Shown here: positions 30,602-39,439 of the stretch, piece after piece
Layout of the letters: the number at the start of each line of letters is the position of its first letter
Numbering within the stretch: position 1 is the stretch's first letter
IMG/VR virus record: IMGVR_UViG_3300027801_001565
Origin: a virus
Length of the DNA: 64,000 nucleotides
Direction: 5' to 3' (one strand)
Translations under genes and position numbers: made by a program
The notes under the pieces: model-generated
Seen by the model: only the letters and a program-made list of their open reading frames with translations
Database searches by the model: none
What the model was told of the DNA's origin: nothing

Positions 30602-30637
30602 ATACTCTTCTCTTGTTTACTCTTGTATTTATACAAT

Positions 30638-32212: not shown

Positions 32213-32227
32213 AATGTTATTTATATG

Positions 32228-33129: not shown

Positions 33130-34524
33130 TTAACCTACTGAATAACTAAATGCTTTATAAGCCTTGGAAGCCTTTTTAATTGTTGGACCACCAGATTTAA
33201 TTCGTGACTTGAATGCTTTTGCCTTAGGTGCTTTAAACTTGCCAGGCTTCTTAATTTTATATCTCTTAGCCTTCTGACTAGCTGCTCCACGTATTGCTTT
33301 AGCTGCTTTGTACTTCTTACTAGTAGTAGCCCCTGCCTTACCTCTACTTCCTAAACGTTTAATTTCGTTCTTTCTCATCTGAGGTAATAGTTTAATTGAT
33401 ATACGATTAACTAATGGTTGGAATCTAGTAATCATTTTCTCTACCCTTGCCTTCTCAGCAGGTGGTAAAGATCCTCTATCTCTTCCTCTGAGCAATCGTT
33501 TGTATACCATAAGTCTCGCACCACGAGTAGCTCTTCTTTTCAATCTGTCTGGAGTTGAACCACGTCTTAGAGCAATACGTCTTGCTACTTTTAATTTTTG
33601 TTTGTTACGTCTCGCATTAAAACGTCTTTTCATACGTCCTTGTACAGATAGTACTTCGTGTATAGCTACATCATTGTTTGGATCGCCATCGAAGTCTTCA
33701 TCTTCTAGTTCTTCTTCGTCATAAAGACCTAGATTAAGAGCATCTTTGAATGTGAAGTTGTCTGCTGCTTTATCTAACTCGTCGACATCTATTTGTTCTA
33801 TATACCACTCGCCGTCTTTACCTGTTAACCAATGGCCTTCATCACCTGTATCATGTGTCTCTTTCTCATTGTTAACAGGGTACTCGTGTTTACTGTGGTT
33901 TGCTTGATTAGGTTCAATGTGATCGTAACCTACAAAGTTTTCAGGATCTGCATATCGCATCAAGTCAAATGTTTCATTGTATCCTTTAACAACAGGGGCG
34001 TCCTGGTGAAGAGGATCCATGTCCCCCATATGAGGTGATATCAACTTCTTCTTTTTGTTTAACAGTTTTTCTGTTATCTTTGTACCAATCTCATCTTGAG
34101 GCCTTCTAGCCTTAATAGGCAATGTTTTTAGAGGTTTAGATACTTTCCCTTCGCCTGGTGTTAGAGATTTAAAATATGCTGTGCCTTGAGGTGTTCCCCA
34201 TTCCATACCGCCTGGAGTTGGATCGTAACGTTCGTCTTCTTTAATAGGCACCGGGGAGGGATTCTTTTTAACAGACTTCTTTGCTGAGTCTATCATTCGT
34301 TTTTCGTGTTTTGCTAACGTTTCTTTTTGTTTGGCATTGCGATCGTCCCAGTAGCCTTCTTTCTGAGTAGTTAACGAATCGTAGCTTATCTTTTTATTGA
34401 AGGAAGCTTTGTAATCCTTAATAGATTTGAATTTACTTCTGTCTACTTTTATCCCAGCTTTCAATCTATCTTGTGGTTTAGGAACGTTGCCTGCCGACAT
34501 TGCAGCTACATTTTCTTTCTGCAT
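33130..34524 (-). CDS. basic putative internal head/core protein; probably the C-terminal part of a frameshift fusion
   Basis: Arg/Lys-rich C-terminus; frame is open upstream to the A9 run; no SD before the ATG. Confidence 0.7.
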   Translation of the reverse strand: MQKENVAAMSAGNVPKPQDRLKAGIKVDRSKFKSIKDYKASFNKKISYDSLTTQKEGYWDDRNAKQKETLAKHEKRMIDSAKKSVKKNPSPVPIKEDERYDPTPGGMEWGTPQGTAYFKSLTPGEGKVSKPLKTLPIKARRPQDEIGTKITEKLLNKKKKLISPHMGDMDPLHQDAPVVKGYNETFDLMRYADPENFVGYDHIEPNQANHSKHEYPVNNEKETHDTGDEGHWLTGKDGEWYIEQIDVDELDKAADNFTFKDALNLGLYDEEELEDEDFDGDPNNDVAIHEVLSVQGRMKRRFNARRNKQKLKVARRIALRRGSTPDRLKRRATRGARLMVYKRLLRGRDRGSLPPAEKARVEKMITRFQPLVNRISIKLLPQMRKNEIKRLGSRGKAGATTSKKYKAAKAIRGAASQKAKRYKIKKPGKFKAPKAKAFKSRIKSGGPTIKKASKAYKAFSYSVG

Positions 34525-34607
34525 CGAAGCGTCTTGGTGTTTCCACCAATTATGATCGTCTTTTTTGGAGAGTGCTTTTAAGTCCTTATGAGCGGACTTA
34601 GGTATTA

Positions 34608-35660
34608 CTACCTTTTTTTTTGAGAGTCCACACGTTTTTTAATATTTTCGCCTGAGACTGGATTGTAAAGCTTCTTCTTACTAGGTGAAACTGGTTGTTT
34701 CTCGTTGGCTGAATCAACTGCTTTGACAACCTTATCAACTCCGCGCCTTACTAGATTGGCTAAACTTTCTTCCATATTATTTAAATCGAATACAATATGG
34801 TTTGCTTCATTTACCTTAGGTGATTCCTTCGGTAGGCCTGCTTTCTTAAGTTTCTCTTTAGTTCTTAAATCTGAAACAACTGGATCGTAATTATCATTAG
34901 AAGACTCTGTTTTTAAATTCTTCATTATTCCTACTTGTCTTGCACGGATGTCTTCGCCAATTCGTTTATCTTTTGGATCTTTGAACTGAGATGCAATTTT
35001 ATTTTGTAAATGCTTAGGTATAGGCTTATTACTAGGTTTATATTTAGGTTTTAAGTCCGCTGCCATATCTTTAATATTGTAGCCTTCACTCCAATCTTTT
35101 CTGACGGTTTCTTTTCCACCAGGGCCGATGTCTGTTACTTTTGTTTTAATAGGTGGACCGTTGTATTTAATCTTAACTGTTTTAAGACTGTCTGGCTTTG
35201 TGCTGTGTACTACAGCTTTCTTCCTACCTGCTAGTGCTTTTGCTCGCCTTTTTTCGTTATCATTAAAATCTTCATTTTGAGTGGCTCTTTTTGCTAATTT
35301 CTTAGTTGCTCTAATAACACCCTTTGCTCTCTGGACACTTTTCATGTCTTCTTTCTCGCCTGCGTCAAAATCATCTGAGTGTGCTAATTTGTGAGCTCCT
35401 TTAGAAGCCAAATTACCTACTGATTTTTTACTTAGAGGTGATACTGCTTTTCTTACATAATTGGATAGTGTCTTAGTTTCTAGCTCTGTGATGTTTTCTT
35501 CTTTCATCTTAAGGGATTTTAGTGGCTTTACTGAAAAGTTTTTTGAATTGTCGTTATGTGTGTCGCCCATTGGTTTCACCAAAGCTTTTTTAGCTGGCCT
35601 ACCAGAAGCTAAGTCCTCACTCATAAGTTTTATTGATTTTTCGATGTCTGTTACTGGCAC
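34608..35660 (-). CDS. Lys-rich modular putative internal head protein
   Basis: GTG start, GGGAGA RBS, late promoter 35682-35689; repeated xxE junctions. Confidence 0.7.
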   Translation of the reverse strand: MPVTDIEKSIKLMSEDLASGRPAKKALVKPMGDTHNDNSKNFSVKPLKSLKMKEENITELETKTLSNYVRKAVSPLSKKSVGNLASKGAHKLAHSDDFDAGEKEDMKSVQRAKGVIRATKKLAKRATQNEDFNDNEKRRAKALAGRKKAVVHSTKPDSLKTVKIKYNGPPIKTKVTDIGPGGKETVRKDWSEGYNIKDMAADLKPKYKPSNKPIPKHLQNKIASQFKDPKDKRIGEDIRARQVGIMKNLKTESSNDNYDPVVSDLRTKEKLKKAGLPKESPKVNEANHIVFDLNNMEESLANLVRRGVDKVVKAVDSANEKQPVSPSKKKLYNPVSGENIKKRVDSQKKR

Positions 35661-35694
35661 TTTTAATCTCTCCCTTACTCTTATTTATACACGG

Positions 35695-36093
35695 TTAATC
35701 TTTTACTTCCGGATCTACTGGTTCTTTAGGTTTATTAGCAATAGCATCTTCGTAATATACGATAACTGTCTTTTGCTGTTCTATATAACGGACTAACTCT
35801 GCCATGTTTAATGACAGGTTCTCATAGTCTGGGATGCTAAGTGCAAAGAATACCATGTCTGCGTGAGTAGTTGTAAATTTTTCTTTAAACTCTTCAAAGT
35901 TAGCTTCTGTTACCGCCCAGTATTTCGTAGGGTATAACGAAACTCCTCGTGGCCTAGGTTGTATAGGAATTGCTCTTTCTATAAATTTGGTTTGTACTTC
36001 AATCTGTGGTGGAGTTTGAAGTAAGCTACAACCACTACTGACTATCAGTAGAAGTAATAGACTCGAGCTCTGTAGTAAGCTTTTGTACGGCAT
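35695..36093 (-). CDS. putative outer-membrane spanin (Rz1-like lipoprotein)
   Basis: Lipobox-like LIVSSG-C; overlaps the i-spanin 3' end. Confidence 0.7.
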   Translation of the reverse strand: MPYKSLLQSSSLLLLLIVSSGCSLLQTPPQIEVQTKFIERAIPIQPRPRGVSLYPTKYWAVTEANFEEFKEKFTTTHADMVFFALSIPDYENLSLNMAELVRYIEQQKTVIVYYEDAIANKPKEPVDPEVKD

Positions 36094-36406
36094 TGTTTAC
36101 CCTCGTTTCAATTAACCCTGGCTTTCTTAGGGTTAGTGCTGTTAAATTGTGTTCTCTTAGTTTTTTCGACAGTTCACTACCATAAGCCTCTGAAGCCTGT
36201 AATTTTACATTTAGCTCATTTGATAACGATTGAAAACGTTCTCTGTCGTCGGATAACGTATCTATCGTATCCTGATTAGTTTGTGCAACGATTGATAACG
36301 CTGCGTTGTTCTCGGTTAGTCGTGTTATCTTCTTTTCAGTAAAATAATAATAAGTGCCAAATGCTAACGTCATCATCAGGAACATTCCAAAGAATACTTT
36401 ACTCAT
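36035..36406 (-). CDS. putative inner-membrane spanin (Rz-like)
   Basis: N-terminal TM segment, coiled coil, KPGLIE.RVN. Confidence 0.7.
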   Translation of the reverse strand: MSKVFFGMFLMMTLAFGTYYYFTEKKITRLTENNAALSIVAQTNQDTIDTLSDDRERFQSLSNELNVKLQASEAYGSELSKKLREHNLTALTLRKPGLIETRVNNAVQKLTTELESITSTDSQ

Positions 36407-38642: not shown

Positions 38643-38650
38643 ATCAGTAT

Positions 38651-39439
38651 TTATAACTCCTGAACATACGGAAAGTCCAGCCGAGCTGTTTTTGTTCCTC
38701 GTAATTTCTCTACTTCTGGTGGTGCTAGTGGTGCGTAAAAATGATCTTCACTAGTATATACTGTCTTATCTACTGCGTTGTTTACGCTACCATGCTTTCC
38801 AGCACGGACATGGTCTATAATAATAGGCGTGTCTCTGAAAGAAACATCTAATTTTGCTACTCTATTCATAAACTCTCTGTCCCCGTGGTGGTGTCCTGTG
38901 AAGGACTCGTCATACCCACCAGCTTCCCAGAATATTGTCTTAGACATCAAAAAACAATTCAAATGGCCTGAATATCTAGTGTCACTCGTTAGTCTAAATA
39001 GCTTTTGTTGCCACCTAGCATAACTCATATGATGATAAACACTATTAGGAGTAGGACGTATTTGTCTGAACCTAGCAACTTCCCCTGGGGGGATAATCAT
39101 ATCTATATCTGCAAATTGTATCCATTCTGTTGGGGCAACTGTAGCTATTAAATTTCTACAGCCATGACTATTAAACCCTAGGTTCTCTGTAACTCTCCAA
39201 ACTTGTAGCGTTGGACCCCACTCTGGAGGCCGCCAATCGCCAATAACTTCCATTGCAGAAGTTTGTTCGGAGCCATCGTCTACGAGGACTATATCACATC
39301 CTTGACTGTAATGTTCCCATTGCGCTATCTGTTCGCGCAGTCTGTCGGGCTCGTCAAAGTATGTGAAACCGAAAGTTAATCTACTCGGTTCCCTCGAAGT
39401 CTTTGACATCTGTTGCTGGGAAGTCAATAGTGTCTCCAT
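38651..39439 (-). CDS. GT-A fold glycosyltransferase (GT2/GT7-like; start uncertain)
   Basis: VDDGS, RNL, ADID (DxD), GGYDE.F.G...GD. Confidence 0.85.
   Translation of the reverse strand: METLLTSQQQMSKTSREPSRLTFGFTYFDEPDRLREQIAQWEHYSQGCDIVLVDDGSEQTSAMEVIGDWRPPEWGPTLQVWRVTENLGFNSHGCRNLIATVAPTEWIQFADIDMIIPPGEVARFRQIRPTPNSVYHHMSYARWQQKLFRLTSDTRYSGHLNCFLMSKTIFWEAGGYDESFTGHHHGDREFMNRVAKLDVSFRDTPIIIDHVRAGKHGSVNNAVDKTVYTSEDHFYAPLAPPEVEKLRGTKTARLDFPYVQEL

Follow-up and report, generated by a model that had tools for sequence, protein, structure and literature searches.

A conserved run of nine adenines joins two out-of-frame parts of a probable late gene in an uncultured marine T4-like myovirus

The DNA analyzed here, called the window throughout, is the whole 64,000-nucleotide stretch of IMG/VR virus record IMGVR_UViG_3300027801_001565, an uncultured marine T4-like myovirus, and within it we evaluated two consecutive open reading frames (ORFs) on the minus strand, ORF A and ORF B, that meet at a run of nine adenines (A9) where the frame changes by -1. 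The elements that make up this junction are as follows.

35660-34608, minus strand: ORF A, the zero frame and short product, 350 amino acids with a GTG start, Lys-rich and modular.
34641-34639, minus strand: the TAA that closes the -1 frame six codons 5' of A9, and the 5' limit of the shift window.
34613-34621, minus strand: the A9 run, the putative shift site, with the zero-frame heptamer A_AAA_AAA inside it.
34608-34610, minus strand: the zero-frame stop TAG one codon 3' of A9, and the 3' limit of the shift window.
34614-34525, minus strand: a start-less -1-frame linker of 30 codons between A9 and the first B-frame ATG.
34524-33130, minus strand: ORF B as the ORF caller lists it, 464 amino acids from an ATG.

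Read on the minus strand, ORF A ends in TCT CAA AAA AAA AGG TAG, terminating one codon past A9, while the -1 frame is open from just 5' of A9 to 33130, leaving the two long ORFs to overlap in a shift window of 28 nucleotides (34638-34611) with A9 inside it. The linker would be coding only with a frame shift at A9 (its peptide is kept in relatives), and no ATG, GTG or TTG occurs in the window's -1 frame before codon 38. Linker and ORF B together give a C-terminal part of 494 amino acids, and the predicted fusion, joined at ..SQKKKVVIPKS.., computes to 349 + 494 = 843 amino acids. These readings agree with a preliminary description of the locus, made from the letters alone, with respect to the end of ORF A, the A9 run, the TAA six codons upstream, the read-through to the ATG at 34524 and the single protein of about 843 amino acids expected from a -1 shift; its remark that this ATG lacks a Shine-Dalgarno sequence is likewise borne out, as none is seen before ORF B.

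A run of nine A's or T's is not in itself improbable in such DNA, with dinucleotide shuffles of the window holding 2.55 such runs on average and the window holding one, which is also its sole homopolymer of at least 8. The placement of A9 within the 28-nucleotide overlap of two long ORFs, together with its conservation in relatives, is far beyond chance. A 170-kb, 99%-complete relative (holding locus L009) has its sole A9/T9 run on either strand at the junction (G001:C1:142492-142500), and long A/T homopolymers appear to have been purged elsewhere in that genome.

The conservation of run and frame break was assessed by running ORF A, ORF B and an alignment of ORF B as queries against contigs of IMG/VR and of JGI/ENA metagenomes, which returned 163 loci (L numbers below), in which every A-run of at least 8 was listed by script with the frames open on either side and duplicates were then removed. 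Among the 39 distinct junction sequences that resulted, all from separate virome or metagenome assemblies, the -1 break falls exactly at the run, which is A10 in two lineages (L014/L086) and A9 otherwise, and ORF B is 48-86% identical to the window's where identity was reported. The zero frame stops 1-3 codons past the run, or about 10-15 codons past it in a second codon-phase group, and the -1 frame is closed 1-25 codons upstream. Two codon phases of the run are found, CAA AAA AAA AGR and GTA AAA AAA AAG, and its length is at least nine in both. Because the contigs derive from many separate samples and assemblies, we regard a homopolymer sequencing error as excluded: where the preliminary description had allowed that the true run might be 10 or 7 A, independent assemblies consistently give A9. 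It had also raised the case of homologs that form one uninterrupted ORF, and these turn out to be a minority (L007/L008, L026, L102/L103), with most close relatives keeping both run and break. L007/L008 are single ORFs of 865 amino acids and L026 is one of 743, L102/L103 share the upstream module and A9, yet read on in one frame and differ downstream, and more distant relatives are single ORFs of about 640-1060 amino acids in the same place after a spanin pair.

The codons of the run and of the frame that follows it were examined for signs of selection. At the 21 distinct sites that share the upstream peptide motif, the run is built from Gln as CAA (20/20), Lys as AAA (42/42) and Arg as AGR (21/21), and the Ser codon just before it ends in A at six sites, T at six, G at five and C at one; because this adjacent third base varies freely, synonymous sites beside the run can be taken as saturated. 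For comparison, Lys codons in the window's genes overall are AAA 843 times and AAG 606 times, and KKK tripeptides elsewhere in the window are never encoded by nine A's (0/12 vs 2.4 expected, a trend only). Downstream of the run, the commonest module (15 distinct sequences) has 8, 6 and 26 variable columns at -1-frame codon positions 1, 2 and 3, such that 26 of its 29 third positions vary from the first codon after the run onward, and the window's own downstream module, with fewer sequences, shows a third-position bias of 15 vs 11 and 8. Judged by this substitution pattern, coding constraint acts on the -1 frame immediately after the run. No B-frame ATG, GTG or TTG lies between the upstream stop and the end of the run in any of 36 sites (36/36), the first possible B-frame start is found 4-230 codons downstream of the run in these sites, and in L004 the first B-frame ATG comes 263 codons past the run, beyond much of the conserved sequence. 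Because this coding evidence is joined by naturally fused forms, the fusion protein is probably real and the split kept by selection within a clade. The programmed -1 transition at A9 put forward in the preliminary description, giving a short product and one of about 843 amino acids with a basic C-terminal part, is strongly supported by this comparative evidence.

Searching for families to which the two products might belong yielded little. ORF A matched no Pfam or PHROG family, and ORF B matched no Pfam family and a single PHROG, of unknown function; neither blastn of the locus nor tblastn of ORF A found a match among cultured phages. The only sequence matches in cultured phages are those of the ORF B protein to hypothetical proteins, one of 123 amino acids in Pelagibacter phage HTVC008M and, for the C-terminal part, also one in Phage C48C1. 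Across the relatives, one conserved module (..NPVSGxNIAKRL..QKK) stands upstream of the junction and at least six unrelated ones are found downstream of it, and each whole protein is a mosaic in which the order of the short basic modules varies. The most widely shared of their parts lies near the end of ORF B.

33235-33807, minus strand: a conserved C-terminal domain, helical and rich in Arg and Lys (ORF B residues ~240-430), behind which comes a basic tail whose very end is conserved.

In a protein library clustered at 50%, 1175 proteins match ORF B (E <= 0.001), most of them through residues ~240-430 and near their own C-termini, with N-termini that vary. The AlphaFold model of the domain consists of long helices (predicted local distance difference test score 75.6); neither a profile search nor Foldseek found a PDB counterpart (for Foldseek, nothing below E = 1), and its structural matches in BFVD are all uncharacterized phage proteins, including one of phiM12. 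The partners that the domain has in other proteins (P0026, P0029, P0039, P0088, P0144) include kinases of the Zeta-toxin/AAA_33 type, cytidylyltransferase/FAD-synthetase-like domains, DUF5824 and DUF5872, which suggests that the domain is a shared handle for different enzymatic cargoes.

We also noted variation around the junction itself. In five lineages (the layout is seen at L017:3460-3660 and L021:3462-3600, and also in L114-L116, L139 and L143), the shift adds a single module of 51-64 amino acids (APPSAK..AYATAWK) before a stop, and the ATG of ORF B overlaps the end of that module and lies in the original frame; set beside the single-ORF relatives, this layout suggests either that the gene has been split or that the frame changes a second time. 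Separately, a second conserved A-run site (..HKPIQKKK..), seen at L007:3273-3282, L020:2439-2449, L117:1267-1276 and L118:1543-1553, carries A10 or A11 and is in frame in most fused relatives, with a stop within 1-3 codons in both alternative frames; in L117 (A10) it is out of frame and in the 94%-identical L118 (A11) in frame. Long A tracts are seen to recur at module boundaries, and either frame arrangement would mix short and long forms if the polymerase slips.

The surroundings of the two ORFs are those of a T4-like phage genome in which the DNA polymerase is less than 50% identical to cyanomyovirus DNA polymerases, and genes for ribonucleotide reductase, primase, helicase and exonuclease lie nearby in the window. 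Immediately upstream of ORF A are a spanin-like pair, a cytidylyltransferase and a DUF6267 protein, and the downstream neighbors are a 298-amino-acid ORF and a B12-radical-SAM gene. The spanin-like pair consists of two overlapping small ORFs (35695-36406, minus strand), one of which matches an Rz-like spanin PHROG; in relatives, a lipobox-like signal (..SGCSL) is seen in the counterpart of the small ORF that lies next to ORF A, and the preceding ORF begins with a hydrophobic, membrane-anchor-like stretch, and such a pair precedes the long gene in nearly all related loci. Two signals stand before ORF A.

35682-35689, minus strand: the T4-type late promoter motif TATAAATA, upstream of ORF A.
35668-35676, minus strand: the strong Shine-Dalgarno-like sequence AAGGGAGAG, 7 nucleotides before the ORF A GTG.

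The motif TATAAATA is found 18 times in the window where 8.25 would be expected; all but two of these copies are on the coding strand (16 of 18), and several stand directly before ORF starts (for example 30626-30633, 32218-32225, 35682-35689 and 38648-38655), an enrichment and placement that fits T4-type late promoters. It is absent from the start of ORF A to the end of ORF B (between 35682 and 33130), and our search for an internal promoter for ORF B gave sigma-70-like matches at chance level and no late-promoter motif. Because no promoter signal above chance precedes ORF B, it would be co-transcribed with ORF A and is without visible start signals of its own. In homologs of ORF A (L002-L015, e.g., L003:2424), which open with a decapeptide resembling the T4 capsid targeting sequence, TATAAATA ends 5 nucleotides before the ATG and leaves no room for a Shine-Dalgarno sequence, whereas in the window a Shine-Dalgarno sequence has been inserted, and ORF A starts at a GTG with an N-terminus unlike theirs.

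Directly after the run, the minimum-energy fold contains two hairpins.

34600-34613, minus strand: hairpin 1, AGGTA-GTAA-TACCT, beginning at the last A of the run.
34579-34600, minus strand: hairpin 2, TAAGTCC-N8-GGACTTA, within the PKSAHKDL codons.

The preliminary description had pointed to these two hairpins beside the slippery run, and both are indeed predicted, but they do not hold up as a conserved frameshift stimulator. Hairpin 1 is confined to the sub-group with the window's downstream module. All copies of the PKSAxKDL module form hairpin 2, be they 7, 26 or 82 nucleotides from a run or without any run nearby, and two run-adjacent lineages lack it; because it goes with the module wherever that lies, we attribute it to the module's codons rather than to a stimulator specific to the site. 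Neither hairpin occurs in lineages where a different module follows the run. Spacing from the heptamer is 1 nucleotide for hairpin 1, which is too close for the usual frameshift geometry, 14 nucleotides for hairpin 2 and about 17 nucleotides for a hairpin in the APPSAK module. Looking beyond individual hairpins, the 55 nucleotides downstream of the window's run fold with a z-score of -3.3, and across lineages the mean is -1.9, as against -1.3 for the 55 nucleotides upstream (both measured against shuffles), with several lineages near zero or positive downstream. We found no downstream structure common to all lineages, an Rfam search of the junction gave no match, and no consistent Shine-Dalgarno-like stimulator was visible by eye in the aligned upstream sequences. 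A role for the hairpins as a general stimulator of frameshifting was rejected, since hairpin 2 is module-intrinsic and no structure is common to the lineages.

The APPSAK module differs somewhat in this regard. Its hairpin averages -11.7 kcal/mol in 18 run-adjacent copies and -6.5 kcal/mol in 7 copies elsewhere, although the copies are not independent, and it may have a local stimulator role in the lineages with this module. Next to A9, the PPSAKAERM codons form a 12-bp hairpin of about -15 kcal/mol through the choice of TCT/ACT and AGG (L094:410-460, L108, L129, L135), while copies elsewhere (L002:4316, L102:545, L026:2864) use AGT and AGA and fold weakly. Exceptions are seen on both sides, with L101 strong and not adjacent, and L021, L139 and L143 adjacent and weak.

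To explain the junction, we favor, with modest confidence, a programmed recoding in which mainly RNA polymerase slippage would yield both the 350-amino-acid protein and the 843-amino-acid fusion. ORF A and ORF B would then be one late gene held one base out of frame at A9. Standard decoding would end one codon past the run and give the ORF A protein, and a minority of expression events would shift to the -1 frame at the run to give the fusion. RNA polymerase would slip on the T9 template tract, adding one A in a fraction of the late transcripts, which would then be translated normally; the protein would be no different if the ribosome slipped by -1 on A_AAA_AAA, and such slips may contribute. 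The fusion would carry the widely conserved basic C-terminal domain and would take the start-less ORF B modules into the head behind the N-terminus of ORF A. Because the product is the same either way (..QKKK and then the -1 frame), the slipping machine has to be judged on indirect evidence; which machine slips, in what ratio the products arise and what the protein does are matters that we infer. For slippage by the polymerase speaks a run that is never shorter than nine in two codon phases, whereas a ribosomal heptamer requires 7; bacterial RNA polymerase, according to PMC6260861, slips only on runs of more than 7 A. The absence of other runs this long from the 170-kb relative, of a downstream structure common to lineages with different modules, and of an Rfam match points the same way. 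Further features by which slippage sites are recognized are also seen, namely the A9/A10 length, in keeping with the 9 or more typical of such sites, frames that overlap only at the run, and conservation of run and break with synonymous selection. Several observations weigh against this reading. The A-run also makes good ribosomal slippery heptamers in both phases, and amino-acid constraint may explain part of the conservation of length nine (Gln/Glu codons ending in AA, Lys in the -1 frame). The stronger hairpin of the run-adjacent copies of the commonest module hints at a ribosomal stimulator in some lineages. In-frame A9-A11 runs in relatives mean that long A tracts may partly be a by-product of Lys-rich coding, and the near-identical pair with A10 (broken) and A11 (in frame) at the second site indicates that length changes do occur in the DNA. 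Finally, five lineages gain only the 51-64-amino-acid module by the shift, and ORF B has its own ATG there.

The alternative that comes nearest is that the same two products arise by a -1 ribosomal frameshift on A_AAA_AAA (A_AAA_AAG in lineages of the other phase), maybe aided by downstream mRNA structure and the closely following stop, and we regard this as possible though distinctly less probable than polymerase slippage. The zero-frame heptamer is there in both phase groups and is of a kind on which bacterial ribosomes shift well, a zero-frame stop follows within 1-3 codons in most lineages, the downstream 55 nucleotides fold better than shuffles on average (with the value for the window given above), run-adjacent APPSAK copies use the codons that build the 12-bp hairpin, and hairpin 2 shows one compensatory change of G-C to A-T (L012/L014). 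Yet lineages with different downstream modules have no structure in common, hairpin 2 is module-intrinsic with two run-adjacent lineages lacking it, the spacings of 1, 14 and about 17 nucleotides fit poorly with the 5-9 expected of such sites, neither a consistent upstream Shine-Dalgarno-like element nor an Rfam match was found, and the run never falls below nine where 7 would be enough.

Two other explanations would dispense with slippage during expression, and we consider both improbable. One is DNA-level phase variation, whereby replication slippage alters the length of the run, some genomes in the population encode the fusion in frame and the consensus A9 is the majority genotype. At the second A-run site, L117 with its broken A10 and L118 with its in-frame A11 differ in this way although they share 94% identity over 1.5 kb, and relatives have A10/A11 runs that are in frame; at the A9 junction itself, however, 39/39 junctions are out of frame with none restored by A10 or A7, the sole in-frame variant (L102/L103) retains A9 and differs downstream, and frequent neutral switching should leave in-frame consensus sequences. 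The other, to which we give the least credence of all, is that there is no recoding and that the break reflects two separate genes, a pseudogene or an error in sequencing the homopolymer. Some sequencing chemistries are prone to such errors, the ORF B ATG at 34524 is conserved in its sub-group, and ORF B clearly has a start of its own in five lineages, but dozens of assemblies independently show the identical A9 and break, neither ORF is disrupted at 48-86% identity, the 30 codons before the ATG are conserved as protein with no start codon, the first B-frame ATG of L004 is 263 codons past the run, and ORF B has neither promoter nor Shine-Dalgarno sequence.

As to what the recoded products might do, the 'head protein' label that the preliminary description gave to these ORFs is plausible, and we consider it probable from sequence features that ORF A and the fusion are capsid-packaged internal proteins. 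T4 ipII and ipIII start with MKTYQEFIAE (read from NC_000866), and the ORF A relatives L003, L005, L014 and L021 carry, after the late-promoter motif, a decapeptide like the T4 capsid targeting sequence (CTS), MKTF..F.ED or similar, while distant relatives that bear kinases have comparable propeptides ending in Glu. The window's ORF A differs at its N-terminus, where the GTG and 12 other residues precede ..LMSED. In the T4 CTS, residues 4 and 7 matter for targeting and residues 8 and 10 for processing, and gp21 cuts after Glu (PMC9026906). A gp21-type protease, Peptidase_S77 (PF03420), is encoded in the 170-kb relative that holds L009, and the window's own head module is not within the 64 kb. 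I-x-E comes directly after many junctions, and hydrophobic-x-E stands before the APPSAK module in all its occurrences. On these features, the shift may be what carries downstream modules that have no start of their own into the prohead behind the ORF A targeting peptide. Going further, one may speculate, and we hold this only tentatively and think it rather unlikely in full, that this marine T4-like group makes capsid-targeted 'polyproteins' of shuffled basic modules with slippage-prone A9-A11 tracts at the module boundaries; an out-of-frame tract would make the short form dominant and an in-frame tract the long form, setting the dose of each module into the prohead, the protease would cut at KKK-I-x-E, and the tract would double as a recombination joint at which downstream modules are exchanged.

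The class of mechanism is well known, with examples in Thermus dnaX, Shigella spa13/mxiE, insertion sequence (IS) elements and E. coli dnaX (PMC5009743), and the present site is a well-supported further example of this recoding class. One close parallel is dnaX of Thermus thermophilus (PMC5009743), where a nine-A run on the coding strand likewise gives a second protein that shares the N-terminus, with both tau and gamma in use; there the slip gives the shorter product, whereas here it would give the long one, as predicted from sequence, and the gene is an unrelated phage late gene. Shigella flexneri spa13/mxiE (PMC5009743) also has an A/T homopolymer at the frame junction, and 25-30% of the spa13 product gains a C-terminal extension needed for function (PMC5009743); those are bacterial type III secretion genes, unlike the phage gene described here, in which the 494-amino-acid extension is longer than the upstream part. 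E. coli dnaX and IS3/IS911 (A_AAA_AAG) resemble the junction in having a heptamer of A's, a -1 shift and a trans-frame product, but they use a defined stem-loop or pseudoknot at 5-9 nucleotides, with an upstream Shine-Dalgarno-like element in dnaX as well, whereas we found no such conserved elements at the phage site and the run there is always at least nine.

Among phage systems, T4 IPII and IPIII are Lys-rich and expressed late, as the proteins here would be, and the likeness extends to the CTS-type decapeptide of ORF A relatives, the gp21-type protease in a relative and the module boundaries that follow hydrophobic-x-Glu. Past the N-terminal decapeptide there is no homology, the N-terminus of the window's ORF A differs, and the proteins here are much larger and modular. 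To our knowledge, no T4 internal protein needs a frameshift. The gpG/gpGT pair of lambda is also a conserved phage -1 shift that makes a short and a long protein, in its case at a set ratio; its site is G_GGA_AAG where ours is a homopolymer, and both the protein and its genomic place are different. An assignment as a lambda-type G/GT tail assembly chaperone was considered and rejected, as the neighbors are the spanin-like, nucleotidyltransferase, DUF6267, radical-SAM and replication genes rather than tail tube or tape measure genes. Our literature searches found no description of this site or of the protein family.

These findings add a well-supported recoding site to the T4-like phages, in which we know of no frameshift-dependent late gene of this kind. 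They also bear on how such genomes are read, since in public metagenomes and viromes gene calling cuts the gene in two and starts ORF B at an internal ATG. As many as a few hundred conserved codons are dropped in this way, which makes the mis-annotation of the family systematic. A natural comparative series for relating run length and frame to isoform ratio is formed by the variants with A9 out of frame, A9 in frame and A10/A11 in frame. Interest in the site is added to by its occurrence in many lineages and by its link to a large unannotated family of probable packaged proteins. Since the C-terminal domain is fused to kinases and nucleotidyltransferases, it may act as a handle by which injected phage effectors are delivered or packaged, in which case the frameshift would control the packaged dose.

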